Sequence record: ON528737 | Source of the DNA: Shigella phage ESh27 | DNA: 64,000 nt | Direction: 5' to 3' (one strand) | Part shown: positions 25,346 through 55,811 of the stretch, piece by piece | Numbering within the stretch: the first letter of the stretch is position 1 | How the letters are laid out: every line of letters starts with the position of its first letter | Position numbers and translations under genes: made by a program | The notes under the pieces: generated by a model | Databases searched by the model: none | Told to the model about the DNA's origin: nothing | What the model saw: the letters and a program-made list of their open reading frames with translations, nothing else

Positions 25346-28057
25346 ATGAAAGAATTTTACTTAACGGTTGAACAGATCGGTGATTCAATTTTTGAACGTT
25401 ACATCGATTCTAATGGCCGTGAACGTACTCGTGAAGTAGAATATAAACCATCATTGTTTGCTCATTGTCCAGAAAGTCAGGCTACGAAATATTTCGATAT
25501 CTACGGTAAGCCGTGTACTCGTAAGTTGTTCGCTAATATGCGTGATGCCTCCCAATGGATTAAACGCATGGAAGATATCGGTCTTGAAGCACTTGGCATG
25601 GACGATTTCAAATTGGCGTATTTGTCTGACACTTATAATTATGAAATCAAATACGACCATACAAAAATTCGTGTGGCTAACTTCGACATCGAAGTAACAT
25701 CTCCGGATGGGTTCCCTGAGCCGTCACAAGCAAAACGTCCTATTGATGCTATCACTCATTATGACTCAATTGATGACAGGTTTTATGTATTTGACCTTTT
25801 GAATTCTCCATATGGTAATGTGGAAGAATGGTCTATCGAAATTGCAGCTAAGCTTCAAGAACAAGGTGGTGATGAAGTTCCATCCGAAATTATTGATAAA
25901 ATCATTTATATGCCGTTCGATAACGAAAAAGAATTGTTGATGGAATATCTCAACTTCTGGCAACAGAAAACTCCTGTCATTTTAACCGGATGGAACGTTG
26001 AGTCATTTGATATTCCATATGTGTATAACCGAATCAAGAATATTTTTGGCGAATCTACTGCGAAACGTTTATCACCACATCGTAAAACTCGTGTTAAAGT
26101 TATCGAAAACATGTATGGTTCTCGTGAAATCATTACATTGTTTGGTATCTCTGTTCTTGATTACATTGACCTTTACAAAAAATTCTCTTTTACCAATCAA
26201 CCGTCGTATTCTCTGGATTACATTTCAGAATTTGAATTGAACGTTGGTAAACTGAAATATGACGGCCCTATTTCTAAGCTTCGTGAAAGCAATCACCAAC
26301 GATATATTTCTTATAACATCATCGACGTGTATCGTGTATTGCAAATTGATGCTAAACGCCAGTTCATCAACTTGAGTTTGGACATGGGTTATTATGCTAA
26401 GATACAGATTCAATCTGTGTTCAGCCCAATTAAAACTTGGGACGCTATTATTTTTAATAGCCTTAAAGAGCAGAACAAGGTGATTCCACAAGGTCGTTCG
26501 CATCCAGTTCAACCTTACCCAGGCGCTTTTGTTAAGGAACCTATTCCAAATCGATACAAATATGTAATGAGTTTCGACCTTACATCTCTGTATCCAAGCA
26601 TCATTCGCCAAGTGAATATTAGCCCGGAAACAATAGCAGGAACGTTTAAAGTAGCTCCATTGCATGATTATATTAACGCAATCGCTGAACGTCCTTCAGA
26701 TGTGTACAGTTGCTCTCCTAATGGCATGATGTATTATAAAGACCGTGACGGTGTAGTTCCAACTGAAATCACTAAGGTCTTTAATCAACGTAAAGAACAT
26801 AAAGGTTACATGCTTGCAGCTCAACGTAATGGTGAAATAATTAAAGAGGCATTGCATAATCCTAATCTTTCTGTTGATGAACCATTAGATGTTGATTATC
26901 GTTTCGACTTCACTGACGAGATTAAAGAAAAGATTAAAAAGTTGTCTGCTAAATCTCTTAATGAAATGCTGTTTAGAGCTCAACGTACTGAAGTTGCAGG
27001 TATGACTGCACAAATTAACCGTAAATTGCTCATCAACTCGCTTTATGGTGCACTTGGCAACGTTTGGTTCCGTTATTATGATTTGCGTAATGCTACTGCA
27101 ATCACAACATTCGGGCAAATGGCTTTACAGTGGATTGAACGTAAAGTTAATGAATATCTGAATGAAGTTTGTGGTACAGAAGGTGAAGCTTTCGTTCTTT
27201 ATGGTGATACAGACTCTATTTACGTATCTGCTGATAAAATTATCGATAAGGTTGGTGAATCTAAATTCCGTGATACCAACCATTGGGTAGACTTCTTAGA
27301 TAAGTTCGCTCGTGAACGTATGGAACCTGCTATTGATAGAGGTTTCCGTGAAATGTGTGAATACATGAACAATAAACAACACTTAATGTTCATGGACCGA
27401 GAAGCTATCGCTGGTCCTCCGCTCGGTTCTAAAGGTATTGGCGGATTTTGGACTGGTAAGAAACGTTATGCATTAAACGTGTGGGATATGGAAGGTACTC
27501 GTTACGCTGAGCCTAAACTCAAAATCATGGGTCTCGAAACACAGAAATCTTCGACCCCAAAAGCAGTACAGAAAGCTCTTAAAGAATGTATTCGACGTAT
27601 GCTTCAGGAAGGTGAAGAATCATTACAAGAATATTTTAAAGAGTTTGAAAAAGAATTCCGTCAATTGAATTATATTAGCATCGCGTCGGTATCTTCTGCG
27701 AATAACATTGCTAAATATGACGTAGGTGGATTCCCGGGTCCCAAATGCCCGTTCCATATTCGTGGAATTCTGACGTATAACCGGGCTATCAAAGGTAATA
27801 TCGATGCACCACAAGTTGTAGAAGGTGAAAAAGTATATGTTCTGCCTTTACGTGAAGGAAACCCGTTCGGTGATAAATGTATCGCATGGCCTTCTGGTAC
27901 TGAAATCACAGATTTAATTAAAGACGACGTACTTCATTGGATGGACTACACGGTTCTCCTTGAGAAGACATTTATTAAACCACTTGAAGGATTCACATCA
28001 GCAGCGAAACTCGATTACGAGAAGAAAGCATCTCTATTCGATATGTTCGATTTTTGA
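25346..28057 (+). CDS. 43: DNA polymerase gp43 (family B, 3'-5' exonuclease plus polymerase)
   Basis: 903 aa; exo motif FDIEV, polymerase motifs DxxSLYPS, KxxxNSxYG, YGDTDS; N-terminus matches remembered RB69-type gp43. Confidence 0.95.
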   Translation: MKEFYLTVEQIGDSIFERYIDSNGRERTREVEYKPSLFAHCPESQATKYFDIYGKPCTRKLFANMRDASQWIKRMEDIGLEALGMDDFKLAYLSDTYNYEIKYDHTKIRVANFDIEVTSPDGFPEPSQAKRPIDAITHYDSIDDRFYVFDLLNSPYGNVEEWSIEIAAKLQEQGGDEVPSEIIDKIIYMPFDNEKELLMEYLNFWQQKTPVILTGWNVESFDIPYVYNRIKNIFGESTAKRLSPHRKTRVKVIENMYGSREIITLFGISVLDYIDLYKKFSFTNQPSYSLDYISEFELNVGKLKYDGPISKLRESNHQRYISYNIIDVYRVLQIDAKRQFINLSLDMGYYAKIQIQSVFSPIKTWDAIIFNSLKEQNKVIPQGRSHPVQPYPGAFVKEPIPNRYKYVMSFDLTSLYPSIIRQVNISPETIAGTFKVAPLHDYINAIAERPSDVYSCSPNGMMYYKDRDGVVPTEITKVFNQRKEHKGYMLAAQRNGEIIKEALHNPNLSVDEPLDVDYRFDFTDEIKEKIKKLSAKSLNEMLFRAQRTEVAGMTAQINRKLLINSLYGALGNVWFRYYDLRNATAITTFGQMALQWIERKVNEYLNEVCGTEGEAFVLYGDTDSIYVSADKIIDKVGESKFRDTNHWVDFLDKFARERMEPAIDRGFREMCEYMNNKQHLMFMDREAIAGPPLGSKGIGGFWTGKKRYALNVWDMEGTRYAEPKLKIMGLETQKSSTPKAVQKALKECIRRMLQEGEESLQEYFKEFEKEFRQLNYISIASVSSANNIAKYDVGGFPGPKCPFHIRGILTYNRAIKGNIDAPQVVEGEKVYVLPLREGNPFGDKCIAWPSGTEITDLIKDDVLHWMDYTVLLEKTFIKPLEGFTSAAKLDYEKKASLFDMFDF

Positions 28058-28097
28058 TATAATGCCATGGACGGTAAACTAATTAAATGAGAGAAAT

Positions 28098-28733
28098 ATG
28101 AAAACTACTCCTATTACTATCGCTATTGACGCAATCATAAAACAAGCTTCTTCTTTGGCCGCTATGGCCAAAGTAATTAGTCAAAACCCTGCTCGTTATA
28201 ATGTTATTCTAGAAACACTTCGACGCCCTGGACTGAGTAATTATGAAAGTCGTGTAATTATTACAGGTGTTGGTAAGAACGCTAATATCGCAACTAAAGC
28301 TTCTGAGACATTTGCTTCACTCGGTATCCCAAGTATGTACTTGAACACCGGGCATTATTCTCACGGTGATGCAGGATTTATTGCGCCTAATGATGTGTTG
28401 ATTCATATTAGTCGTTCTGGTAAGACTGAAGAAATGATAGGTGTTGCTAAACATCTTCGTATGATTCGTCCTCAGGTTAAACAGATTCTGTTACATTGTA
28501 ACCCTGACATTCCACAAGAATACGAAGCTCTTTTTGATTATACGTTCTGTACCGGTATCGCGGTAGAAGTTGACGAGAACTCTTTAGCTCCGACTATGTC
28601 CACTACATTGTTGTTAGCGCTTATCGATACGTTTGCTATCAACCTTTCGTCTGAACGTGGATTTACCTCTAATGACTTCCTTAAGTTCCACCCTGGCGGT
28701 GCACTAGGTGCCATGTTACGAGGCGAACAATGA
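28098..28733 (+). CDS. SIS-domain sugar-phosphate isomerase (KdsD-like arabinose-5-phosphate isomerase)
   Basis: 211 aa; GVGKNANIATKASETFASLGIPS...HGDAG...ISRSGKTEE matches the KdsD/GutQ SIS-domain pattern; no CBS domain. Confidence 0.7.
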   Translation: MKTTPITIAIDAIIKQASSLAAMAKVISQNPARYNVILETLRRPGLSNYESRVIITGVGKNANIATKASETFASLGIPSMYLNTGHYSHGDAGFIAPNDVLIHISRSGKTEEMIGVAKHLRMIRPQVKQILLHCNPDIPQEYEALFDYTFCTGIAVEVDENSLAPTMSTTLLLALIDTFAINLSSERGFTSNDFLKFHPGGALGAMLRGEQ

Positions 28734-28873
28734 AAGCAATAACAATAGGACTTTTACTATTGATGCTTGTCATGACTATCTACTGGAGCTTAACGGCTCC
28801 GGTAATGATTCCAACACTTGTAATTGGATGGATTATGATTGGTCTACAGGCAAAGTATGAATGCTTTAACTAG
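28730..28873 (+). CDS. hypothetical small membrane protein
   Basis: 47 aa, two hydrophobic segments; ATGA overlap with SIS gene stop; read by eye. Confidence 0.35.
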   Translation: MKAITIGLLLLMLVMTIYWSLTAPVMIPTLVIGWIMIGLQAKYECFN

Positions 28874-28914
28874 AATAGTGTACAATACACCTACTTACCA
28901 ATGAGGACTTCAAC

Positions 28915-30600
28915 ATGAAAAAAGCTGTTATTCTTGGTGCTGGATTGGCAACTCGTTTATATCCAATTACTCACCATATTCCAAAAGTTCTTGTGAACTA
29001 TAAACAAGACACTATTCTGAGCAATTTGTATACAATTTATTCTGACCTTGGCGCAGATGAAATTATTGTAGTAGTTCATTCAAAATTTGCTGAAACCGTT
29101 CGAGCTTATTGTGAGCAAGAAGGGTTCAATGTGACTATTCGTACAGTTGATGAAGCGTATGGTTCTGCTTATGCTCTTGCTAAATTACACAAAGATTTAG
29201 ACGGCCATAACGTAGTTGTTAACTGGTGCGATATTATTCCTGATTTTGGTTCATGGTCTTGGAATGTTAACGCAATCTATGTTAAGGGTGATGAATGTCG
29301 ATATAATTTCGATGGTGAAAATATCACTAACGTAGGTTCAACAGGCGGTAATGTTGTAGGAATTTATCAGTTCAAAGACTGGGAATTCTATATGGGTTCT
29401 ACTGATGAGGAAATTCATGAATACTGCAAAGGACGTGATTTCGTAGAATTCCTTTACAGCAGCGCATTCAATAAATCAGAGCTTATGAATCTAATTGATT
29501 TAGGTGATATGCCTAAACTTGAAAAAGCTCATGAAGTTCGTGAACTTAATCGTAGTTTTAATGCAGTTGAAATTGGTGAAGAAACTGTAACTAAATTCGC
29601 ATTAACTGAACAAGGTCGAGCTCTTCAAAAAGATGAGATTTCATGGTATTTGAAAGTGAAATCAGATTCAGTCCCTCAGTTAGTTTCTGTTAATGAAAAT
29701 AACTTTGAAATGGAACGCATTAAAGGTAAGCCAGCATTTGAATATATTAAATCCAAATCAAGTCTTGCTCGTCCACAAATTGTTGATGCAATTTTAGATG
29801 CACTGAAATTCAGCACAGACATTTATTTTGTAAGTCCTGAAACTGTTCGTCGTGATTTCACTAAAGAATTCTATACGAAAGTTATTGATCGTTGTGAAAG
29901 CATTCAACCATTGATTGATTCATTTGGTAAAATCACACATGTGAACTACACTAAGATTGGACGTCTGAAGCCAATGCTGAAACAAGCTTTAGAACATCTT
30001 ATTCGTTATCATAACCGTTCTCAGGGACAGTACTCTGTTATTCATGGTGACCCAAACTTCAGTAATACTATGATTACCGATAACGGCGAAGTCAAGTTTA
30101 TCGACCCTCGTGGATATTTTGGTGAAACCAAGATTTACGGGCCAAAATTGTATGATGAAGCTAAAGTGCTTTATGCTGTTTCAGGTTATGATGAATTCAA
30201 CGCTAATCCGACCTGGGGCCAGTTTATTATTGATGAAACAACTTGTAATGTGACTATTAACATCAATCCATTAGTTTACAAATATGGAAAGATGAGTTCG
30301 TTTAACGAGTATCATCATTTGGCAGTGGCAATTATCTGGATTGCATTAGGTGGTTATTTCAAGAATAATCCACTTAAAGCGGTAGCCGCATATTATAAAG
30401 GTATGGAACTTCTAACTAAGCAATTACGTAACATGGGCCGTGTACTTCAAGATGGCTCTATTAGTTATGACGTAGCAGAACCTGTAACGGCTACTCTGAT
30501 TACAAAAAATCCTGGTAAATGGGTACTAACTGATAAAGAAACTGGTGTTTCCTATCGTCCAATCGGTGGCGATATCACTCATCAATGGGAACGAATCTAA
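28915..30600 (+). CDS. bifunctional sugar-1-phosphate nucleotidyltransferase / sugar kinase (putative)
   Basis: 561 aa; N-terminal GxGxR nucleotidyltransferase motif (AVILGAGLATRLYP...PKVLV); C-terminal APH/choline-kinase-like HGDPNFSN...FIDPRG. Confidence 0.7.
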   Translation: MKKAVILGAGLATRLYPITHHIPKVLVNYKQDTILSNLYTIYSDLGADEIIVVVHSKFAETVRAYCEQEGFNVTIRTVDEAYGSAYALAKLHKDLDGHNVVVNWCDIIPDFGSWSWNVNAIYVKGDECRYNFDGENITNVGSTGGNVVGIYQFKDWEFYMGSTDEEIHEYCKGRDFVEFLYSSAFNKSELMNLIDLGDMPKLEKAHEVRELNRSFNAVEIGEETVTKFALTEQGRALQKDEISWYLKVKSDSVPQLVSVNENNFEMERIKGKPAFEYIKSKSSLARPQIVDAILDALKFSTDIYFVSPETVRRDFTKEFYTKVIDRCESIQPLIDSFGKITHVNYTKIGRLKPMLKQALEHLIRYHNRSQGQYSVIHGDPNFSNTMITDNGEVKFIDPRGYFGETKIYGPKLYDEAKVLYAVSGYDEFNANPTWGQFIIDETTCNVTININPLVYKYGKMSSFNEYHHLAVAIIWIALGGYFKNNPLKAVAAYYKGMELLTKQLRNMGRVLQDGSISYDVAEPVTATLITKNPGKWVLTDKETGVSYRPIGGDITHQWERI

Positions 30601-30986
30601 TGCACCGTGTAGAAAACATGCTTAATCTTTGTTTTGATGTCGATGATTGTATAACAGAGTGGAATAACAATCGTGATTATGTGAACTTCAAACCGGACGT
30701 CGAAATGGTGTCCGCCATTAATGCCCTGTATGATGCAGGGCACACCATAACGCTTTACACGGCTCGTGGTATGAAGTCTGTAGGACCTGGTCGTATAGCA
30801 ATTGACATTCTCCCGAGTCTGATTCAGAACTTGGAAAACATTGGTTTGAAGTACCATAATTTGCTAACACATAAACCAGTATATGATTGGATTATCGACG
30901 ACAAAGCTATGCGTCCTGACGAATTCAAAGCTCTTATGAATAAAGGCGAATTCGAAACATTTAAATCATATAAACCGAATCTATAA
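30600..30986 (+). CDS. HAD-like phosphatase (putative)
   Basis: 128 aa; N-terminal FDVDDCIT resembles HAD motif I (imperfect); TAATG overlap with upstream gene. Confidence 0.5.
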   Translation: MHRVENMLNLCFDVDDCITEWNNNRDYVNFKPDVEMVSAINALYDAGHTITLYTARGMKSVGPGRIAIDILPSLIQNLENIGLKYHNLLTHKPVYDWIIDDKAMRPDEFKALMNKGEFETFKSYKPNL

Positions 30987-31043
30987 TAATTTAAGTAAGA
31001 CCTGCAAAAACCATCGCATCAATTAACGTGAGATGCAAAAAAA

Positions 31044-32204
31044 ATGAATACTTTTAAAATCGGAACGAATTTTGATTTAGCTCTTCTTGATAAAATCGTA
31101 GAGCTCAATAAAACCTATCCTAATAGCTTGATAAACGAAGTATATGGCTCTACAAGAGAAATGGCTTTTGTAGCAGCCAGACCTGATTTTAGGCTTCCTG
31201 ACGTCGACAAAAAGATGTTAGAAGACTATGTTAAACGTTGTAACGAATTAGGTATTTGCTTTAACTATACACTCAACACGATAAATCCTGGTTCAAAAAG
31301 AGAACTAGTTGAGTGGAAGAAGAAAGCTATTCAGGATTATGTTCAGTATCTTTGGTCAATAGGCGTATGGCGTATTACTATCGCTAACCCTGTTGTTATG
31401 GAAATTGTTCGTGAAGTCAATAAAGATATTGAGATTGAAGTTTCAACAATTCTACATGTTGATGCCGTAACTCAAATCAAATACTTACACGACCAATATA
31501 ACATCAAAAAGGTCTGCTGTGGAATTCATAAGAACCGTTCAGTTTCTTTCCTGAAGCGTGCAGCAGAGTTTTGCAATAAGAACAATATAATATTTGAAGT
31601 TCTTGTAAATGAGTTCTGTTCTAATGCTGGTAAAGGGTATACAACACATTGTAGCTATCGTGACTCTTGCTATATTTTCCATAGTACTGATGTTACAGCT
31701 GATGATGCTAAATCCTTAAATGGATATCCAATGCAACACTGCATTAAAGCTCGTGATACAGACCCATTTAACTGGCTGAGAACTCGTTTTGTTCGTCCTC
31801 AAGATTTGAAACTTTATAATGATATTGGTATCACTCAATTCAAAGTTTCAGGACGTACAGGTAGCACAGACTACATTTTGAAAGTTCTTGAAGCATACGC
31901 TTCTGAAAAGTTTGAAGGTAATTTGTTAGAACTGTGGAAGCCTTTAGAGACTATTTTCACTCTTGAAAATGAGACTGAGTTTTCACATACAGTAAATATT
32001 GAAACCTCTTTGTTAGATGGCTTTTTAGAAAAAAGGTGGTTCAGACATCCGGATTTTGATTGTGCTAATGAAATCTGTGGGTCAACGTGTACATATTGTG
32101 AAAGATATTATAAACGTCAATTATCTAAAAATGGGTTAGCAGAAAACTCTATATCTATTATTGATATAACTAACTCTGATGACGCTTTGAGGTACCCGGA
32201 ATGA
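31044..32204 (+). CDS. hypothetical protein with Cys-rich C-terminus
   Basis: 386 aa; C-terminal CANEICGSTCTYCERY plus earlier NEFCSNAG...HCSYRDSCY; family not assigned. Confidence 0.6.
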   Translation: MNTFKIGTNFDLALLDKIVELNKTYPNSLINEVYGSTREMAFVAARPDFRLPDVDKKMLEDYVKRCNELGICFNYTLNTINPGSKRELVEWKKKAIQDYVQYLWSIGVWRITIANPVVMEIVREVNKDIEIEVSTILHVDAVTQIKYLHDQYNIKKVCCGIHKNRSVSFLKRAAEFCNKNNIIFEVLVNEFCSNAGKGYTTHCSYRDSCYIFHSTDVTADDAKSLNGYPMQHCIKARDTDPFNWLRTRFVRPQDLKLYNDIGITQFKVSGRTGSTDYILKVLEAYASEKFEGNLLELWKPLETIFTLENETEFSHTVNIETSLLDGFLEKRWFRHPDFDCANEICGSTCTYCERYYKRQLSKNGLAENSISIIDITNSDDALRYPE

Positions 32205-32440
32205 TTTCTAGAAAAACTTTTAACCACCAACTTAATGAAGAGATTTTGACTATAAAACTGAACACTAACGAACAAATTCTTAAAAAGGCCCTGATGGGCC
32301 TGTTTGAAACTAAAGCGGCTAAAGTGATTAAAGAACCTGTTCAACTAGAATATTATGCTGATGCATTTCTTCATAGTGTTCTTGGAAGTATCGATGCTGA
32401 AGCTTTACGTTATATCAACATTGTCAAGAAATTCAAATAA
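32201..32440 (+). CDS. hypothetical protein
   Basis: 79 aa; ATGA overlap. Confidence 0.45.
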   Translation: MISRKTFNHQLNEEILTIKLNTNEQILKKALMGLFETKAAKVIKEPVQLEYYADAFLHSVLGSIDAEALRYINIVKKFK

Positions 32441-32470
32441 GCTTTACGAATTGAGTATATAATAAATTGT
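32440..32470 (+). promoter_or_regulatory. middle-type promoter candidate
   Basis: aGCTTTAc followed by TATATAAT upstream of gene 42. Confidence 0.3.
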
Positions 32471-32482
32471 ATTGAGGTAAAC

Positions 32483-33199
32483 ATGGGAAAACATAACACA
32501 ATGAAATATATCAAAGCCGCAGATTTTCAAACCGCATTTAAAGCAGTCAATCGTGAAATTTTAGAAAACCCGGAATTCGTAACTGATTCTCGTATTGGAC
32601 GTTGTAATGAAATTGGGTCTATGACCGTAGTTGTTGACACTCCATCATCATTCAAAATGACCGACCCACGTATTAATCGCATCTCTTATGAATATGCCGA
32701 AGACTTCTGGAAGTTTATGATTTCTGGTGGTACCAACGCAGAAGAAGCGTTTAAGGCATATCCTAATGTCGCTAAATTTATTTCTAAACCAAAATCAGAT
32801 GTTTTGCCGGCGAACTTCAACACTTTCTATGGTCCTCGCATTGCGGCCCAATTACCAGCTCTTCTCAAAGAACTTAAAGAGAAGCCTAACTCTCGAAGAG
32901 TTGTGTTCCAAATTCTAGAAAGTTCTGATCAGGCTTTGCTTGATTCAGACGAAACACTTGAATATCCATGTACTGACTCAGTGACTTATTATATTCGTGA
33001 TGGTAAGCTTTATACACACTGTCATATGCGTTCTCAGAACTGTGCTGTTGTTATGCAGTTGGATTTTTATCTCCAAGGAAAATTACTTCATTATATCGCT
33101 AACGAATGTGGTGTAGAAGTTGGTGATTATACTCATACCATGGTAAGTGCCCATGTGTTTGAACGTGATTTTGATTATGTTAAAGGATTCCTTGACTAA
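32483..33199 (+). CDS. 42: dCMP hydroxymethylase gp42 (thymidylate-synthase fold)
   Basis: 238 aa; active-site region PCTDSVTYYIRDGKLYTHCHMRSQNCAVVMQLDF parallels T4 gp42 / thymidylate synthase. Confidence 0.8.
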   Translation: MGKHNTMKYIKAADFQTAFKAVNREILENPEFVTDSRIGRCNEIGSMTVVVDTPSSFKMTDPRINRISYEYAEDFWKFMISGGTNAEEAFKAYPNVAKFISKPKSDVLPANFNTFYGPRIAAQLPALLKELKEKPNSRRVVFQILESSDQALLDSDETLEYPCTDSVTYYIRDGKLYTHCHMRSQNCAVVMQLDFYLQGKLLHYIANECGVEVGDYTHTMVSAHVFERDFDYVKGFLD

Positions 33200-34098
33200 T
33201 GGCTATTTTCCGCGTACCAATCTTGAGTATGCGGTCTTATGAAACTGGACAGTATGCTATCCTTAAGGATGGCAACTTCCAACTTCATTTGCACCGTGCT
33301 AATCCAGGCGATGTGATTACATATCCACGTAATGCATCTGATATTAAAGAATGCGAACGTCTTTTCCCGGAATTTAAGTTTGTTCCATTATGGTATAAAG
33401 ATAACGCGTATAACACTCGTAAATATTTCTGGTCTGAAAACGAATTTGTTGTTGATTCATTAATTGCTTATTATGATTGTGATTTTCTAATCACAGATAT
33501 CACTGGATATGACGGCGCTTTTGATGTAGAATTCAATTTCAATATCACTGCAGACCCTAATAAACCACGTTTTTATATTGACGAATTCTTAAAAACCGAC
33601 ATGTTGTCGGTTAATCGTTCACTTCAAACTACTGTGTTGAATGAACGTCAAAAAGAAGTGCTGGTTAACGCAGGTGCAGACGATAATAAGATTATCGTAA
33701 CGCAGAAAGTTATACGTCCTTCCATCATGCAGCGTCTTGTAGGTGATTTGGCTCCTATTCATGTAGATGGTATTTTTCATCCATTTCGAATTAGTGATCC
33801 GTGTTATCATTTTGAACAAGTGGTTGAATGTGCAATTCAATTAGGTCAACCGCTTTATATAACCGATCCAAATAATAGCTTCGACAGAAATAAGTATCCT
33901 GAAGAAGCGCTGATTCGAATTTTTAAACCAACTAAAACTGAGTACTACCAAATTCTTAAAGGACGTCCGAAGATTCAATATTTCGAAAATCCTGAAGAAG
34001 TATTCCATCCAGGTCTTGGTGAGTTCATCTACTTTAATGCTTTAATTTCTTCGCCGTATAATATACCTAAATACGAAGATGTCGTAATCGAGGAATAA
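33199..34098 (+). CDS. hypothetical protein occupying the beta-glucosyltransferase position
   Basis: 299 aa between gene 42 and uvsX; no recognisable similarity to T4 beta-gt. Confidence 0.6.
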   Translation: MAIFRVPILSMRSYETGQYAILKDGNFQLHLHRANPGDVITYPRNASDIKECERLFPEFKFVPLWYKDNAYNTRKYFWSENEFVVDSLIAYYDCDFLITDITGYDGAFDVEFNFNITADPNKPRFYIDEFLKTDMLSVNRSLQTTVLNERQKEVLVNAGADDNKIIVTQKVIRPSIMQRLVGDLAPIHVDGIFHPFRISDPCYHFEQVVECAIQLGQPLYITDPNNSFDRNKYPEEALIRIFKPTKTEYYQILKGRPKIQYFENPEEVFHPGLGEFIYFNALISSPYNIPKYEDVVIEE

Positions 34099-34099
34099 A

Positions 34100-34648
34100 A
34101 TGGCTAAAATTATTTTAGTAGATGGCCCGGATAATGCCGGTAAAACAACTTTCATTAATGACATAATGGAAATTAGTGAAAGATATGTAAAGATTGATTT
34201 CCCTAAACGAACAGTTGATGGACGTTTCGATGTTAAGTCTCGAAATGAAGTTGGTTGTTTCGAAACGATGTTGAATTATTTAGACCCTACTAAGATTTAT
34301 CTGTTAGACCGTGGATATATTAGTAACTGGGTTTATGGACGTATTCGACAAGATGCGGACTCGGTTCTTGACGTTTATGAACAGGATTATGTTCGTCTTT
34401 GTCAAAACCATGATGTGTTCACAATTATTTTAACACGTAACGAAATGACTGAAAGTTTTGAAGACGACCTTATTACTTTGTCTTCATTCGGTTTTAATAC
34501 AGTCATTTCACATTTTGAAGAGTTTGCAATTCATAACAAAATCCAAACGTATCAATTACTTAATCATGATGGTGCTAACAAAGTTATAGGATTTAATGCA
34601 AGCGAACGTAATGATTTGATTACAGAAATTATCAAATGGGCTCGTTAA
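34100..34648 (+). CDS. P-loop NMP-kinase-like protein (thymidylate-kinase fold)
   Basis: 182 aa; Walker A GPDNAGKTT and DRGY motif like TMPK DR(Y/H). Confidence 0.55.
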   Translation: MAKIILVDGPDNAGKTTFINDIMEISERYVKIDFPKRTVDGRFDVKSRNEVGCFETMLNYLDPTKIYLLDRGYISNWVYGRIRQDADSVLDVYEQDYVRLCQNHDVFTIILTRNEMTESFEDDLITLSSFGFNTVISHFEEFAIHNKIQTYQLLNHDGANKVIGFNASERNDLITEIIKWAR

Positions 34649-34667
34649 GAGCCTGTTTAAAGTTTTA

Positions 34668-34694
34668 AATGCTGTATAACCCTTAGTATATAAT
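34668..34694 (+). promoter_or_regulatory. middle-type promoter candidate upstream of uvsX
   Basis: aaaTGCTgtA followed about 12 nt later by TATATAAT. Confidence 0.35.
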
Positions 34695-34747
34695 CATCTT
34701 ATCTTTTAAACGTGAGTAAAATATAATGATGCCTATGGAAAAATACA

Positions 34748-35920
34748 ATGTCTGATTTAAAATCTCGTCTGATTAAAGCTTCTACTTCTAAAATGACTGC
34801 AGACTTGACTAAGTCTAAGCTGTTTAATAATCGTGATGAAGTCCCTACTCGTATTCCGATGTTGAATATTGCACTAGGTGGTGCTCTGAATGCAGGATTG
34901 CAATCAGGCTTGACTATTTTTGCTGCACCTTCTAAACATTTTAAAACATTGTTTGGACTAACTATGGTTGCAGCGTATATGAAGAAATATAAAGATGCAA
35001 TCTGTTTGTTCTATGATTCGGAATTTGGTGCTTCGGAATCTTACTTCCGTTCGATGGGTGTTGATTTGGACCGCGTAGTTCATACACCAATTCAGTCTGT
35101 CGAACAACTTAAAGTCGATATGACTAATCAGCTTGATGCTATTGAACGCGGTGATAAAGTTATTATCTTTATCGATTCAATCGGTAATACTGCATCTAAG
35201 AAAGAAACCGAAGATGCATTGAACGAGAAAGTTGTAGGTGATATGTCTCGTGCTAAGGCACTTAAATCTCTGTTCCGCATTGTGACTCCTTATCTGACTA
35301 TTAAAGATATTCCGTGTGTTGCAATCAACCATACAGCAATGGAAATCGGCGGACTATATCCTAAAGAGATTATGGGTGGTGGTACAGGTATTCTTTACTC
35401 TGCTAACACTGTATTCTTTATCTCTAAACGTCAGGTTAAAGAAGGTACAGAATTGACCGGTTATGACTTCACGTTGAAAGCAGAAAAATCTCGTACGGTT
35501 AAAGAGAAATCTACTTTCCCGATCACGGTTAATTTTGATGGCGGTATTGACCCATTCAGCGGCTTGTTAGAAATGGCAACTGAAATTGGTTTTGTGGTTA
35601 AACCTAAAGCCGGTTGGTATGCTCGTGAATTCCTTGACGAAGAAACAGGTGAAATGATTCGTGAAGAGAAATCATGGCGTGCTAAAGCTACTGATTGCGT
35701 AGAATTCTGGGGACCGTTGTTTAAACACAAACCTTTCCGAGATGCAATTGAAACTAAATATAAACTAGGTGCTATCTCTTCTATTAAAGAAGTTGATGAC
35801 GCTGTTAACGATCTTATTAATTGCAAAGCAACAACTAAAGTTCCGGTTAAAACTTCTGATGCTCCATCTGCAGCAGATATAGAAAACGACCTTGACGAAA
35901 TGGAAGATTTCGATGAATAA
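34748..35920 (+). CDS. uvsX: recombinase UvsX (RecA/Rad51-like)
   Basis: 390 aa; strong match to remembered T4 UvsX (MSDLKSRLIKASTSK...). Confidence 0.9.
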   Translation: MSDLKSRLIKASTSKMTADLTKSKLFNNRDEVPTRIPMLNIALGGALNAGLQSGLTIFAAPSKHFKTLFGLTMVAAYMKKYKDAICLFYDSEFGASESYFRSMGVDLDRVVHTPIQSVEQLKVDMTNQLDAIERGDKVIIFIDSIGNTASKKETEDALNEKVVGDMSRAKALKSLFRIVTPYLTIKDIPCVAINHTAMEIGGLYPKEIMGGGTGILYSANTVFFISKRQVKEGTELTGYDFTLKAEKSRTVKEKSTFPITVNFDGGIDPFSGLLEMATEIGFVVKPKAGWYAREFLDEETGEMIREEKSWRAKATDCVEFWGPLFKHKPFRDAIETKYKLGAISSIKEVDDAVNDLINCKATTKVPVKTSDAPSAADIENDLDEMEDFDE

Positions 35921-39004: not shown

Positions 39005-39373
39005 ATGAAAAAATTAATCGCTTTAGCAATGGTATTTGGATTAACCGGATGTGGTGCTCATGGCTTTATCCCTAATAATGTCGGCCAATTGATTTATAAC
39101 CCGAATGTTAAACAGTACAACCAACCTAAAGTTGAAGTGGAAGACCCGGTTACTGTAGGTAATCGAATGATTCAAGCTGATGCCCATGCTCAACGTTATC
39201 GTGATTCTGATACTGTAGCATTGACAAAAGAACAACGCGTTAAAGAACATTGCTTACAGGCTACCGAAATCGCATTCATTCGCTATGTTGAAACAACTGG
39301 TAAAGAGCCTACCCAGAAACAAATCGCGAATAACTACGTCCAGTGTATTGAACGTTTAAACAAATTTAATTAA
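39005..39373 (+). CDS. hypothetical lipoprotein
   Basis: 122 aa; signal peptide with lipobox LTGC. Confidence 0.55.
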   Translation: MKKLIALAMVFGLTGCGAHGFIPNNVGQLIYNPNVKQYNQPKVEVEDPVTVGNRMIQADAHAQRYRDSDTVALTKEQRVKEHCLQATEIAFIRYVETTGKEPTQKQIANNYVQCIERLNKFN

Positions 39374-39376
39374 TTG

Positions 39377-39406
39377 GTTTACGCCAAAGTTAAAACAAGA
39401 TACTAT
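39377..39406 (+). promoter_or_regulatory. early-type promoter
   Basis: GTTTAC-N18-TACTAT. Confidence 0.4.
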
Positions 39407-39434
39407 AAACATAACAAATCAAGAGGAAATTAAC

Positions 39435-39683
39435 ATGGAATTATTCGTAGCTAGTTCAGTAGCAGTTTTAATCGCAGGTATTGGTTCAATCATCATTTAC
39501 ATGTTGCCTTGGGTAATCGCACTTATTCGTGGCACAAAAAGCACAACAGCAATCTTCTTTGTATCTTTGCTCTTTAACTGGACGATGGTTGGTTGGATTG
39601 GAACTTTAATTTGGTCTATCGTTGCCGAAAAGAAATCTGCTCAGCAGCCTCAACAAGTAATTATTATTCGCGAAAAAGAATAA
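39435..39683 (+). CDS. Imm-like superinfection immunity membrane protein
   Basis: 82 aa, two TM helices; PWVIALIRG...LLFNWTMVGWIGTLIW fits the Imm family pattern. Confidence 0.6.
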   Translation: MELFVASSVAVLIAGIGSIIIYMLPWVIALIRGTKSTTAIFFVSLLFNWTMVGWIGTLIWSIVAEKKSAQQPQQVIIIREKE

Positions 39684-42723: not shown

Positions 42724-43245
42724 ATGGCACACTTTAACGAATGTTCACAACTTATTTCTGGTGTTGATAAAGCAGAAGAAGCTTATTTTAATGCTCTGAT
42801 TCACGAAGATAAAGACCCACTGCAGGTAATGCTTGATATGCAGAAATCTTTACAGGTTCGTCTGGCGAATGACAAGCCTGAACATAACAAACATCCTGAT
42901 GAATTGGCCACTGCTGGCGATGTTGTTGATTGGCTGCGTAATCAGAAAGATTATATTGATGATGAATTCCGTGAACTGCTGACTTCACTTGGTGGTATGA
43001 GCAATGGTGAAAAAGCTGCCAGCAGTGTATGGAAGCCTTGGAAAGCACAACATGCTGAATTCCGTAATCGTCGTATTGATGAGTTGTCTCCTGAAGACCA
43101 GCTCGAAATTAAATTTGAGATGATTGATATCCTGCACTTTGTTCTGAACATGTTCCATGGCCTTGGACTGACTGCAGAAGAAATCTTTAAACTGTATTAC
43201 CTGAAAAACGCCGAGAACTTTGCTCGTCAGGACCGAGGTTATTAA
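42724..43245 (+). CDS. 56: dCTP pyrophosphatase gp56
   Basis: 173 aa; matches remembered T4 gp56 (MAHFNEC...DPLQVMLDMQ...EIFKLYYLKN.ENFARQD). Confidence 0.85.
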   Translation: MAHFNECSQLISGVDKAEEAYFNALIHEDKDPLQVMLDMQKSLQVRLANDKPEHNKHPDELATAGDVVDWLRNQKDYIDDEFRELLTSLGGMSNGEKAASSVWKPWKAQHAEFRNRRIDELSPEDQLEIKFEMIDILHFVLNMFHGLGLTAEEIFKLYYLKNAENFARQDRGY

Positions 43246-54710: not shown

Positions 54711-55811
54711 ATGAAAGTTATGTTTATCCCATCTCGCGCAGTCCCGTTTAACCCAGAACGTGTACAAGGTGGTCTTGAAGCAGTACATTTAAATGTGTTG
54801 AAATATCTTGTGTCCATCGGTGCTGATATTGATTATATCGGCTTTGATAATGACACGTTTGGTGACTGGAAAGTTACACACCATCCTGTTGGTCATCTGA
54901 CTAAATTCAGTCTAGGTATGAGTTATACTATGGCTCGTAAGATTGTTGAACTAGCCGGCATTAATGAGTACGATTTCGTTGTTACAATGGAACCGACCAA
55001 ACTAACCGTTCAGGCAATTAAAGACGCAGGTCTCTCTAAAGTTCATAAGAATTTTATGGCAACACCATTTGAACCGGTATCTCGTGGCATTGTTCAAATT
55101 TGGGACCAGACTATTCAAATTCATAAGAATGGTGGTAAGAGTTATGCTCCTACTAAAGCCTTCCGTGAATTTGAACGCAAATATTGTTATATGACTTCAG
55201 GACTGACTGACAAAATTGATTATGATTATTGGCGAGCAAATCCGTTGTTTGAAGCCGAAGATTATCCGGTTATTTGTTTGACTGAAAAACCGGAAGTTCT
55301 CCCAGCAACTGATTTGATTATTAGTGCTCAACGTTATGACACTAAGATGCGTCGTACTGATGTTGCTCTTGAAGCGATTAAAGCATTAGGCGAAAATGGT
55401 ATTGGTTATTGTCCAAGCAAATGGGCACCACCAGCTAAGTATCCTGTTATTATTGATGCTCCACACAGTGAAATCATGGAACGTCTTAAAACAGCTAAAG
55501 CACTTATTAATACGTGTCCTGACACGGGTACGGTAGAGAATAGTTCTATTGAAGCCATCTCTAAAGGTGTCCCTGTAATTCAGTTAGTTTTTAAGGATTA
55601 TCCGCATGCGACATTCGAATATGACCCAGATACTGTGCGTGTAGAAATTGATTCCTCTACTCCTAAGAAAGAAGTAGTTGCGCTTTACACAAAAGCTGTA
55701 TTAGAATTCACTGACACGTACGAAGCTCGAGTTAAACGTGCTGAAGCAGTATGGAAGAAGTATAACCGAGATGCAGTTGTTGCAATGTGGGATAAAATCT
55801 TCACAGCGTAA
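54711..55811 (+). CDS. GT-B fold glycosyltransferase (candidate DNA glycosyl/arabinosyl-transferase)
   Basis: 366 aa; N-terminal MKVMFIPSRAVPFNPERVQGGLEAVHLNVLKYL and C-terminal ENSSIEAISKGVPVI resemble GT4-type GT-B motifs; sits between gene 39 and rIIA. Confidence 0.65.
   Translation: MKVMFIPSRAVPFNPERVQGGLEAVHLNVLKYLVSIGADIDYIGFDNDTFGDWKVTHHPVGHLTKFSLGMSYTMARKIVELAGINEYDFVVTMEPTKLTVQAIKDAGLSKVHKNFMATPFEPVSRGIVQIWDQTIQIHKNGGKSYAPTKAFREFERKYCYMTSGLTDKIDYDYWRANPLFEAEDYPVICLTEKPEVLPATDLIISAQRYDTKMRRTDVALEAIKALGENGIGYCPSKWAPPAKYPVIIDAPHSEIMERLKTAKALINTCPDTGTVENSSIEAISKGVPVIQLVFKDYPHATFEYDPDTVRVEIDSSTPKKEVVALYTKAVLEFTDTYEARVKRAEAVWKKYNRDAVVAMWDKIFTA

Follow-up and report, generated by a model that had tools for sequence, protein, structure and literature searches.

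Arabinosyl-5-hydroxycytosine DNA modification genes in Shigella phage ESh27: the predicted sugar-donor island and a possible role for its U32-family protein

The window analyzed here is a 64,000-nucleotide stretch of Shigella phage ESh27 (sequence record ON528737). The source phage is a Mosigvirus (RB69-like), which bears out the link to RB69 arabinosylation drawn in a preliminary description of this DNA. That description had reported a co-directional, partly coupled gene set at positions 28098-32440, and an ORF check found all of its ORFs and overlaps on the plus strand. Some of the genes overlap, with translational coupling at the start/stop overlaps 28730/28733, 30585-30600 and 32201/32204. 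The island lies downstream of the DNA polymerase gene (25346-28057) and upstream of a thymidylate-synthase-family gene, and its GC content (0.33-0.40) is that of its flanks. More than 150 Mosigvirus genomes, AlbertHofmann/Bas47 among them, match the 6.7-kb region at 97-98% identity, and the encoded proteins share 95-99.5% identity with their counterparts in phage HY126. In T4, imm.1 and imm sit between genes 43 and 42, so the earlier statement about their position is right; however, they are not replaced in ESh27 but relocated to 39011-39680, where the window keeps an imm.1-like ORF (39011-39358) and imm (39435-39680). A 47-aa hydrophobic ORF, absent from the earlier gene list, has unannotated homologs that follow imm in VR5 and separate imm from gene 42 in T4. 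It is probably an ancestral T4-type small gene and not a pathway member.

Table 1 Island genes and other predicted DNA-modification genes in the window.
Feature	Position	Strand	Evidence
SIS-domain sugar-phosphate isomerase, 211 aa, RB69 gp55 ortholog	28098..28733	+	Pfam SIS E 4e-10; phrog_5670
47-aa hydrophobic ORF	28730..28873	+	start overlaps SIS stop; phrog_3610 E 7e-27
AfhE ortholog, bifunctional, 561 aa	28915..30600	+	NTP_transferase E 8e-10, residues 3-99; HGDPNFSN motif
AfhF ortholog, HAD phosphatase, 133/128 aa	30585/30600..30986	+	TIGR01689 E 2e-13; phrog_1238; DVDDC motif
Peptidase-U32 family Fe-S protein, 386 aa, Cys-rich, RB69 gp50 ortholog	31044..32204	+	Pfam PF01136 Peptidase_U32 E 7e-11
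79-aa ORF	32201..32440	+	translationally coupled to U32 gene; phrog_8601
Candidate 5-hydroxy-dCMP synthase (thymidylate-synthase homolog)	32483..33199	+	Thymidylat_synt E 2e-15
Putative first DNA arabinosyltransferase, RB69 gp46:47 ortholog	33199..34098	+	phrog_3891; PMC13326640 Table 1
Thymidylate-kinase-like nucleotide kinase, RB69 gp45 ortholog	34100..34648	+	phrog_761 E 2e-45; P-loop GPDNAGKT; PMC13326640 Table 1
dCTPase/dCDPase, gp56 type	42724..43242	+	98.3% identity to AlbertHofmann dCTPase (tblastn)
Second DNA arabinosyltransferase, RB69 ORF003c/gp3 ortholog	54711..55808	+	97.8% identity to AlbertHofmann bas47_0105

The SIS protein (98.6% identity to its HY126 counterpart) matched KpsF/GutQ (TIGR00393, E 5e-32) and KdsD (E 2e-30). 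These matches fell under the curated NCBIfam cut-offs and spanned the SIS part only; the protein is a SIS domain alone, without the CBS domains of KdsD. It is predicted to convert ribulose-5-P to D-arabinose-5-P. Residues 310-409 of the AfhE ortholog (96.3% identity to HY126 AfhE) gave weak kinase-family matches, including sub-threshold APH/fructosamine-kinase matches (E 0.002-0.04). No Pfam match above threshold was found for this kinase domain, whose HGDPNFSN motif is intact. By analogy with HY126, the N-terminal part would be a sugar-1-P uridylyltransferase and the C-terminal APH-like kinase would act on C1 of arabinose-5-P. The HAD protein (95.5% identity to that of HY126) matched a capsule-biosynthesis phosphatase family, TIGR01689, and its translation may in fact begin at the ATG at 30600, the start given in the HY126 annotation. 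As an AfhF ortholog it would strip the 5-phosphate from Araf-1,5-bisphosphate, and Lee et al. describe the phosphatase as structurally matching the GmhB type (PMC13326640). As relayed by Lee et al., HY126 AfhE and AfhF are reported to make UDP-D-arabinofuranose and are sufficient when starting at arabinose-5-P, by way of Araf-1,5-bisphosphate (kinase), Araf-1-P (phosphatase) and UDP-Araf, bypassing free arabinose (PMC13326640).

The four folds assigned in the preliminary description were recovered by profile matches, and for the kinase by sub-threshold matches plus the motif. By analogy, the logic of the island is that of the ADP-heptose pathway carried over to a pentose. ADP-L-glycero-D-manno-heptose is made by the SIS isomerase GmhA, the bifunctional kinase/adenylyltransferase HldE and the HAD phosphatase GmhB. 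The two share four steps and folds: a SIS isomerase, a C1 kinase yielding a bisphosphate, a HAD enzyme removing the distal phosphate and a fused nucleotidyltransferase-kinase. The island differs in using a pentose, an APH-like instead of a ribokinase-like kinase, and UTP instead of ATP, and the nucleotidyltransferase of AfhE is N-terminal, unlike the domain order of HldE.

The gene downstream of the island had been taken for gene 42, the dCMP hydroxymethylase. Its product, 97.9% identical to the HY126 enzyme, carries D169N, N177D and L143E relative to E. coli ThyA, whereas D169 is kept in T4 gp42. D169N is the published signature of flavin/O2-dependent 5-hydroxy-dCMP synthases, and flavin- and O2-dependent formation of 5-hydroxy-dCMP from dCMP has been demonstrated for the HY126 enzyme and RB69 gp48, the latter with flavin cofactor and 18O2 labelling (PMC13326640). 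The signature thus suggests such a synthase and not a dCMP hydroxymethylase. The first transferase sits where T4 has beta-gt (98.3% identity to HY126), the adjoining nucleotide kinase is 98.4% identical to that of HY126, and the second transferase lies between the rIIA and topoisomerase genes. The latter's AlbertHofmann counterpart is annotated 'putative hmC-arabinosyltransferase', and second-arabinosyltransferase roles have been described (PMC6024577, PMC13326640, PMC13390438). AlbertHofmann/Bas47 DNA is reported to contain arabinosylated 5-hydroxy-dC (PMC13326640), and one Mosigvirus isolate carries mono- and di-arabinosyl-dC (PMC13390438). The gp56-type enzyme would clear dCTP, leaving only modified dC for DNA.

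Judged by its genes, the island very likely makes up the sugar-donor half of Mosigvirus arabinosyl-5-hydroxycytosine DNA hypermodification. Family matches exist for every step of the proposed pathway. Ribulose-5-P from the host pentose-phosphate pathway would be isomerized to D-arabinose-5-P by the SIS protein, phosphorylated at C1 by the AfhE kinase domain to arabinofuranose-1,5-bisphosphate, relieved of its 5-phosphate by the AfhF phosphatase and converted to UDP-D-arabinofuranose by the AfhE uridylyltransferase domain. The last three of these steps are reported for HY126 enzymes (95-96% identical), as relayed in PMC13326640. In parallel, the ThyA homolog would use flavin and O2 to turn dCMP into 5-hydroxy-dCMP, which would enter DNA via kinases and polymerase, and the two glycosyltransferases would attach one or two arabinoses. 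None of these steps needs the 386-aa U32 protein. The earlier proposal of NDP-pentose synthesis from ribulose-5-P as a supply for phage DNA glycosylation is upheld. Its other elements correspond to a rival in which the island feeds arabinosyl-hmC beside a true gene-42 enzyme and the phosphatase releases free arabinose for an anomeric kinase. RB69 was indeed first reported as ara-hmC (PMC6024577), and Table 1 of PMC13326640 still carries the entries 'dephosphorylates Araf5p to Ara' (phosphatase) and 'phosphorylates Ara to Araf1p' (kinase). However, NMR and MS reassigned the base to 5-hydroxycytosine, with arabinose ether-linked directly to C5, and the ara-hmC assignment has been declared an error (Lee et al. 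2026, PMC13326640; PMC13390438); D169N speaks against gene 42; and the text of PMC13326640 makes HY126 AfhE an arabinose-5-P kinase and the 1,5-bisphosphate the AfhF substrate. We regard the rival as highly improbable.

The island is already known from the literature of 2018 and 2025-2026. The precursor enzymes, presented earlier as a new inference, were proposed when the module was flagged in 2018 (Thomas et al., PMC6024577) and in the GenBank annotation of AlbertHofmann, and they were reported in 2026 to have been characterized. The HY126 Afh cluster, corresponding to RB69 gp45-gp55, has the same D169N signature and the same second transferase near rIIA; we see no substantive difference from the window, except that the 79-aa ORF, intact here, is shortened to 40 aa in HY126. 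The primary biochemical work on AfhE/AfhF is that of He et al. (Nat Chem Biol 2026), and the Afh cluster is reportedly treated by Mahler et al. (2025) as well. T4 hmC glucosylation (gp42, gp1, gp56, alpha-/beta-glucosyltransferases) shares the logic of destroying dCTP, modifying dCMP by a thymidylate-synthase-family enzyme, incorporating the product and glycosylating it on DNA, as well as the neighborhood 43 ... 42 ... uvsX. The acceptor is a hydroxyl in the window's system and a hydroxymethyl in T4, the chemistry uses flavin/O2 instead of folate (PMC13326640), and the sugar donor is phage-made instead of host UDP-glucose. No homolog of the T4 beta-glucosyltransferase was found in the 64-kb window.

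The preliminary description gave the Cys-rich 386-aa protein no role. It scores 42.2 bits against PF01136 (cut-off 22.4) and aligns with RlhA/TrhP/UbiU/UbiV at 96.6% probability (hhalign profile-profile). Peptidase-U32, whose 'peptidase' label is historical, is a family that includes the prephenate-dependent, O2-independent hydroxylases acting on C2501 of 23S rRNA (RlhA, ho5C), U34 of tRNA (TrhP, ho5U) and ubiquinone (UbiU/UbiV). These proteins are linked to prephenate-dependent hydroxylation, and direct in vitro hydroxylase activity has not yet been shown. The AF2 model (pLDDT 93.6; top PDB match 5D88) is a TIM-barrel, as in these proteins, and cysteines align with their Fe-S ligands. Across 111 sequences (identity down to 46%), 44 residues are invariant, including nine Cys; C177, at 98%, makes ten conserved Cys. 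The phage proteins nevertheless form a separate subfamily (17-21% identity to RlhA/TrhP/UbiU/UbiV), with a weak UbiU match (E 9e-4) as the sole NCBIfam hit, an altered spacing, CX10CX5CX23C, and an additional C-terminal CX4CX3CX2C. The adjoining 79-aa ORF had no hit in Pfam with the threshold relaxed to E 10 and was rejected as a chorismate mutase. Its homolog is a small extra ORF between the U32 and chorismate mutase genes of Pectobacterium PM2 and Yersinia phiR1-RT (E about 1e-13).

In 11 Straboviridae genera, inspection of gene neighborhoods placed the U32 gene within the operon for DNA modification. It is followed by chorismate mutase in all ten other phage genera sampled, unlike the 64-kb window, in which no chorismate mutase was found. 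In Thanatos-2 its position is shifted, yet operon and chorismate mutase are kept. In unrelated uncultivated phages it lies beside DAHP synthase-chorismate mutase fusions and beside homologs of the DNA arabinosyltransferase and of the sugar-activation enzymes (SIS, AfhE, HAD), with no ThyA-type hydroxylase nearby. In unrelated phages it also abuts dCMP deaminase, TMK-like kinase and DNA polymerase genes as well as homologs of the first transferase. Six phages pair it with a transferase homolog only, with no AfhE or SIS homolog within 10 kb. Conversely, the AfhE/HAD/ThyA/GT set occurs without U32 in Acinetobacter phages Maestro and DLP3, both reported to make poly-arabinosylated 5-hydroxy-dC (PMC13326640), and in E. 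coli Dhakavirus VR5.

From homology and gene context, we propose at roughly even odds that the U32 protein provides an anaerobic, prephenate-dependent second route to 5-hydroxy-dC, acting on dC nucleotides or DNA. A role in UDP-arabinose biosynthesis or sugar tailoring would fit its place inside the sugar-gene block, its co-occurrence with SIS, AfhE and HAD homologs in uncultivated phages, the AlbertHofmann annotation 'putative enzyme involved in UDP-arabinose biosynthesis' and the entry 'sugar or heterocycle reductase' of Lee et al. (PMC13326640 Table 1). It is unlikely, given the phages that have either gene set without the other, the reported sufficiency of AfhE and AfhF from arabinose-5-P (PMC13326640), and chorismate mutase and DAHP synthase neighbors that are useless in pentose chemistry. 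A neighboring chorismate mutase would suit RNA hydroxylation equally well. We know of no U32 member that acts on sugars, and the only characterized pyrimidine-hydroxylating members have RNA substrates. T4-like phages encode their own tRNAs. A TrhP/RlhA analogue hydroxylating tRNA or rRNA instead of DNA precursors is still quite improbable in view of the DNA-modification operons, including the Thanatos-2 case, the DNA-related neighbors in unrelated phages, and the absence of the C-terminal extensions that TrhP and RlhA have. Most GenBank records label the protein 'peptidase' or 'collagenase-like protease'. That it is such a protease, or a decaying passenger gene, we consider scarcely credible: it is the most conserved cluster protein between genera (79-89% identity versus 42-73% for AfhE), the invariant residues argue likewise, and characterized U32 members are linked to hydroxylation.

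The proposed second route to 5-hydroxy-dC would differ from RlhA, TrhP and UbiU/V in its presumed substrate, a deoxynucleotide or DNA, and resemble O2-independent U32 hydroxylases in that its relatives adjoin prephenate supply genes. A U32 protein and an O2-dependent enzyme with one product in common would parallel the pairs TrhO/TrhP and UbiI,H,F/UbiU,V. In the accessible literature, we found no statement of such an anaerobic route and, in work on arabinosylation, no tested role for the U32 gene. If the proposal is true, an O2-independent hydroxylase could let the phage build arabinosylated DNA without air.

The island lies in a run of same-strand genes between the T4-type DNA polymerase gene and uvsX, in which an ORF scan revealed start/stop codon overlaps at four junctions. 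The co-directional, partly coupled arrangement given in the preliminary description is thus borne out. The GC content of the island (0.33-0.40) equals that of its flanks, and a composition scan detected no GC or skew anomaly. Promoter and terminator counts over 27800-34900 were at or below the shuffled expectation, and are therefore uninformative on operon structure. Of the 219 phage records that match the 6.7-kb region, 151 do so over 80% or more of the query, and the region is 97-98% identical to Mosigvirus phages including phiC120, phiE142, JS09 and AlbertHofmann (Bas47). The precursor enzymes had been put forward as an inference. However, Thomas et al. (2018) had flagged the module between polymerase and uvsX and named two of its products, the SIS protein and the 561-aa fusion, as candidate enzymes of UDP-arabinose synthesis; in the AlbertHofmann record the island genes bear the annotation "putative ... 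involved in UDP-arabinose biosynthesis".

Coordinates of the island genes and of related features in the window, with amino acid identity to the Escherichia phage HY126 reference
Feature	Coordinates	Strand	Length	Identity to HY126	Remark
T4-type DNA polymerase	25346-28057	+			ORF scan; upstream of the same-strand gene run
SIS protein	28098-28733	+	211 aa	98.6%	ORF scan
Small hydrophobic ORF	28730-28873	+	47 aa		ORF scan
AfhE ortholog	28915-30600	+	561 aa	96.3% (full length)	ORF scan
AfhF ortholog (HAD)	30585-30986	+	133 aa	95.5% (full length)	ORF scan
U32 protein	31044-32204	+	386 aa	99.5%	ORF scan
Small ORF	32201-32440	+	79 aa		ORF scan
ThyA homolog	32483-33199	+	238 aa	97.9%	ORF scan
Transferase	33199-34098	+	299 aa	98.3%	ORF scan
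TMK-like kinase	34100-34648	+	182 aa	98.4%	ORF scan
uvsX	starts 34748	+			End of gene run
imm.1-like ORF	39011-39358				Near spackle and dmd
imm	39435-39680				Near spackle and dmd
dCTPase	42724-43242				Further part of the system
Second arabinosyltransferase (gp3/ORF003c type)	54711-55808				97.8% identity to bas47_0105

Profile searches confirmed the SIS, nucleotidyltransferase, kinase-like and HAD fold assignments. The SIS protein matched Pfam SIS (E 4e-10; 40 bits, cut-off 25), KpsF/GutQ TIGR00393 (E 5e-32) and KdsD (E 2e-30), the latter two below their curated equivalog cut-offs (111.5 bits versus 203.7 and 106 versus 505). It covers profile positions 2-153 of 268, does not have the KdsD-type architecture of a SIS domain with tandem CBS domains, and is probably a SIS-only relative that works like KdsD. 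The AfhE ortholog contains a sugar-1-phosphate nucleotidyltransferase domain in residues 3-109 and, in residues 310-409, weak APH/fructosamine-kinase-like matches with an intact HGDPNFSN motif. The AfhF ortholog matched TIGR01689 (E 2e-13) and carries a DVDDC motif. For a pentose, the scheme parallels the ADP-heptose pathway, with its SIS isomerase, fused C1 kinase-nucleotidyltransferase and HAD phosphatase that works on the bisphosphate. [quoted passage not shown] On that report, the order of phosphatase before kinase that had been proposed is reversed.

The DNA of RB69 contains mono- and di-arabinosylated 5-hydroxycytosine, in which the sugar is ether-linked directly to C5, as established by MS and NMR (Lee et al. 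2026, PMC13326640). Mono- or di-arabinosyl-5-hydroxy-dC in virion DNA is known only from the close relatives RB69, HY126, Bas46/47 and NP, and the 2026 study of NP, a Mosigvirus isolate, calls the earlier ara-hmC assignment erroneous (PMC13390438). The ThyA homolog of RB69, gp48, generates 5-hydroxy-dCMP, binds flavin and incorporates 18O from O2, and D169N is the signature of the 5-hydroxy-dCMP synthases (Lee et al. 2026, PMC13326640). In the alignment, the ThyA homolog in the window carries Asn, Asp and Glu where E. coli ThyA has D169, N177 and L143, respectively. In the first two of these columns T4 gp42 shows D and D, against D and N for E. coli ThyA, and the identity of the window protein to T4 gp42 is only 25%. 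The D169N signature indicates that this protein is not a dCMP hydroxymethylase and that the product is not ara-hmC. Thus, neither gene 42 as the neighbour of the island nor hmC as the glycosylated base, both taken from the preliminary description, can be retained. Both types of DNA arabinosyltransferase, gp46:47 and gp3/ORF003c, are encoded in the window. That description correctly recognized a published system under an outdated chemical assignment, and the pathway itself is nothing new.

In T4, imm.1 and imm lie between genes 43 and 42, as had been stated, but the island does not replace them: both are still encoded in the window (39011-39680), approximately 11 kb downstream of the island. 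These superinfection-immunity genes have been moved to a new place. The 47-aa ORF ends in KYECFN and its T4 homolog in KYECIN. The homolog (NC_000866.4, about 26220-26372; comparison locus L023, 8221-8373, minus strand) lies in the 153 nt that separate imm from gene 42, without annotation in the T4 record, and another copy follows imm in Dhakavirus VR5. The ORF seems to represent a small, conserved gene of the T4 core, with the arabinose genes inserted around it.

The value of the analysis beyond the published pathway rests entirely on the Cys-rich U32 protein. This protein belongs to Peptidase_U32 (PF01136; 42.2 bits, cut-off 22.4), and hhalign of a 111-sequence alignment against RlhA, TrhP, UbiU and UbiV gave a probability of 96.6% (E 6e-10, 211 columns). 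The AlphaFold2 (AF2) model (pLDDT 93.6) has the U32 protein 5D88 as its top fold match in the PDB. The fold search returned 5D88 and generic TIM barrels only, with no solved RlhA, TrhP or UbiU/V structure for comparison, and a PDB sequence search gave no match. Nine cysteines are invariant in 121 sequences (C158, C192, C203, C209, C233, C340, C345, C349 and C352), and C177 is 98% conserved. The [4Fe-4S] motif of the family is CX6CX15CX3/4C, with the variant CX6CX16CX38C in UbiU. C192, C203, C209 and C233 occupy the same segment with different spacing, so that the motif is matched only in part. C209 and C233 are shared invariantly with all four E. coli proteins and align to the UbiU ligands C176 and C193, the first ligand aligns with C192 in one alignment and with C203 in hhalign, and the alignment contains no Cys 3-4 residues past C233. 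Residues 340-352 form an invariant CX4CX3CX2C motif ("CGSTCTYC"), which includes the radical-SAM-type CX3CX(aromatic)C spacing plus a fourth Cys. This C-terminal motif may constitute a second Fe-S site or a zinc site that is lacking in the E. coli U32 proteins.

All U32 proteins of known role are linked to O2-independent hydroxylation of aromatic carbons that depends on Fe-S clusters and prephenate. RlhA forms 5-hydroxycytidine in 23S rRNA, TrhP forms 5-hydroxyuridine in tRNA beside the O2-dependent TrhO, and in ubiquinone synthesis UbiU/V stand in for the flavin/O2 hydroxylases and draw the oxygen from prephenate. For RlhA and TrhP, direct hydroxylase activity is without in vitro demonstration, according to the 2024 prephenate paper. 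Lee et al. (PMC13326640) list the RB69 ortholog, gp50, once, as a "sugar or heterocycle reductase", and their text contains no U32, chorismate or prephenate. The Thanatos paper modeled the ortholog TH1_065, assigned it no role and leaves peptidase, U32 and chorismate unmentioned. None of the full texts searched discusses the protein, and searching them for U32 and chorismate mutase in connection with phages gave no relevant result.

A tblastn search located the U32 protein in 221 phage records, every one at 80% identity or more. The U32 gene is followed by a CM_2 chorismate mutase gene (32.8-46.2 bits, cut-off 27) in 10 of the 10 non-Mosigvirus genera sampled, which were represented by Winklervirus, Kanagawavirus (two phages), Marfavirus, Mosugukvirus, Tegunavirus, Kagamiyamavirus, Bragavirus, Gualtarvirus and the Shewanella phage Thanatos-2. 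The mutase gene lies immediately 3' of U32 or one to two small ORFs later; in Thanatos-2 the pair is kept together and shifted elsewhere in the cluster. The same succession occurs in 13 of the 15 Straboviridae loci from IMG/VR. The product of chorismate mutase is prephenate. A tblastn search found no chorismate mutase anywhere in the 64 kb of the window, and U32 would therefore depend on host prephenate in this phage. We asked whether the 79-aa ORF might be a chorismate mutase that has diverged or undergone a frameshift, but it has no CM_2 match to E 10 and no remnant in the other two frames; it is homologous to the second small ORF that separates U32 from chorismate mutase in PM2 and phiR1-RT. 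In HY126 (L006, 11287-11409) the small ORF that follows U32 is shortened to 40 aa, and Klebsiella phage Clarke_MM3 (L007) has neither a small ORF after U32 nor a chorismate mutase. To judge by these gene contents, some lineages are losing accessory genes of the U32 module while U32 remains intact. In LC53, PEi20 and phiR1-RT (L002, L011 and L012; 4352-4990 in each) a seg-type homing endonuclease gene lies directly 5' of U32. No protein of the cluster is better conserved between genera than U32 (79-89% identity versus 42-73% for AfhE). Taken together, the endonuclease neighbor, the high conservation of U32 and the relocation in Thanatos-2 suggest lateral spread of the module among Straboviridae.

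The known arabinosylation pathway does not need U32. Acinetobacter phage Maestro and the E. coli Dhakavirus VR5 encode AfhE, the HAD phosphatase, the ThyA homolog, the transferase and the kinase, and neither has U32 or chorismate mutase. DLP3 is likewise without U32 (Lee et al., Table 1, PMC13326640). AfhE is present in 57 Acinetobacter phage records, and Acinetobacter is missing from the list of organisms for the 221 U32 records. Acinetobacter is a strict aerobe, and the listed hosts of U32 phages are, to our knowledge, facultative anaerobes throughout. The correlation between U32 and host is not absolute, as VR5 infects E. coli.

To get a broader picture of U32, we turned to metagenomes, which contain many relatives at 44-58% identity; matches at E <= 1e-30 form about 495-500 clusters (50% identity). 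In 31 non-Straboviridae loci from IMG/VR, homologs within 10 kb of U32 included the 299-aa DNA arabinosyltransferase (22 loci), AfhE (15), HAD (15), the TMK-like kinase (14), SIS (8) and DAHP synthase (5), whilst the D169N ThyA homolog occurred in none of the 31. The transferase homolog frequently adjoins U32 immediately. The only ThyA in these loci (L045) has the canonical L143/D169/N177 and is a true thymidylate synthase, not a hidden hydroxylase. The DAHP_synth_1 neighbors were also considered as KDO-8-phosphate synthases that would consume arabinose-5-phosphate, and were rejected as such on scores of 125-237 bits for DAHP synthase versus 47-67 for KDO8PS. Three of the DAHP synthases near U32 are fused to CM_2 domains (39-72 bits), and one locus (L058) has the order transferase - SIS - AfhE - kinase - DAHPS/CM - HAD - U32. 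In other loci U32 follows dCMP deaminase or lies beside TMK-like, UDG, dUTPase and DNA polymerase III genes, and in one it is flanked by the transferase homolog on one side and a TET-associated glycosyltransferase on the other, near a UDP-galactopyranose mutase. Large uncultivated phages with DNA polymerase III alpha, some of it split or intein-containing (L016, a 466-kb JGI contig, and L020, L019, L027 and L028), carry U32 within a nucleotide-metabolism block (TMK, UDG, dCMP deaminase, dUTPase). This placement suggests hypermodified pyrimidines in uncharacterised phage lineages.

Matches to U32 in genome bins were mostly from strict anaerobes (Erysipelotrichales, Oscillospiraceae, Gastranaerophilaceae, Romboutsia, Tannerella and a cultured Phocaeicola faecalis). 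Anaerobe genomes (L086, 3044-7137, Phocaeicola faecalis; L017, 5135-15428; L018) contain a recurrent cellular cassette in the order GP88 - (guanylate-kinase-)methyltransferase - unknown protein of about 265 aa - U32. In L017 it is followed by a 5'-nucleotidase, a PnuC-like transporter, a deoxynucleoside kinase, a radical-SAM protein, a second U32 and a nucleoside deoxyribosyltransferase. The cassette may direct nucleoside hydroxylation and then O-methylation.

Based on gene neighborhoods and family membership, we propose that the U32 protein is the founding member of a subfamily of pyrimidine C5 hydroxylases that depend on prephenate, need no O2 and act on dCMP or DNA. RB69-like phages of facultative anaerobes would then have two hydroxylation routes. 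We give this proposal an even chance of being correct. The evidence for prephenate dependence is indirect and consists of the chorismate mutase and DAHP synthase-chorismate mutase genes beside homologs of U32. Rival roles for the protein are sugar tailoring, RNA hydroxylation and proteolysis, and there is evidence against each. On the simplest reading of these patterns, U32 would provide the hydroxyl that accepts the sugar in DNA glycosylation when O2 is lacking, fed by prephenate and working alongside a dedicated nucleotide kinase; such a partner suggests action at the dCMP level. In Mosigviruses, the O2-dependent flavin ThyA homolog would serve in air and U32 would be the back-up in the anoxic gut. 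In many uncultivated phages, apparently of strict anaerobes, U32 would be the only hydroxylase before DNA glycosylation, and a phage chorismate mutase or DAHP synthase would boost its prephenate supply. [quoted passage not shown]

The known 5-hydroxy-dCMP synthase takes its oxygen from O2, dCTP is destroyed by the phage and the hosts grow mostly in the absence of oxygen, and replication in the gut is therefore puzzling. According to the 2024 prephenate paper no in vitro U32 assay exists; if the proposal is true, dCMP would be a small, soluble candidate substrate for one. The proposal is specific, testable by existing assays and absent from the literature searched. If it holds, a U32 hydroxylase would explain anoxic replication and take U32 chemistry beyond RNA and quinones to DNA. 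It would also predict metagenomic phages with glycosylated 5-hydroxypyrimidines, and bear on the evasion of restriction and CRISPR and on which phages are chosen for therapy.
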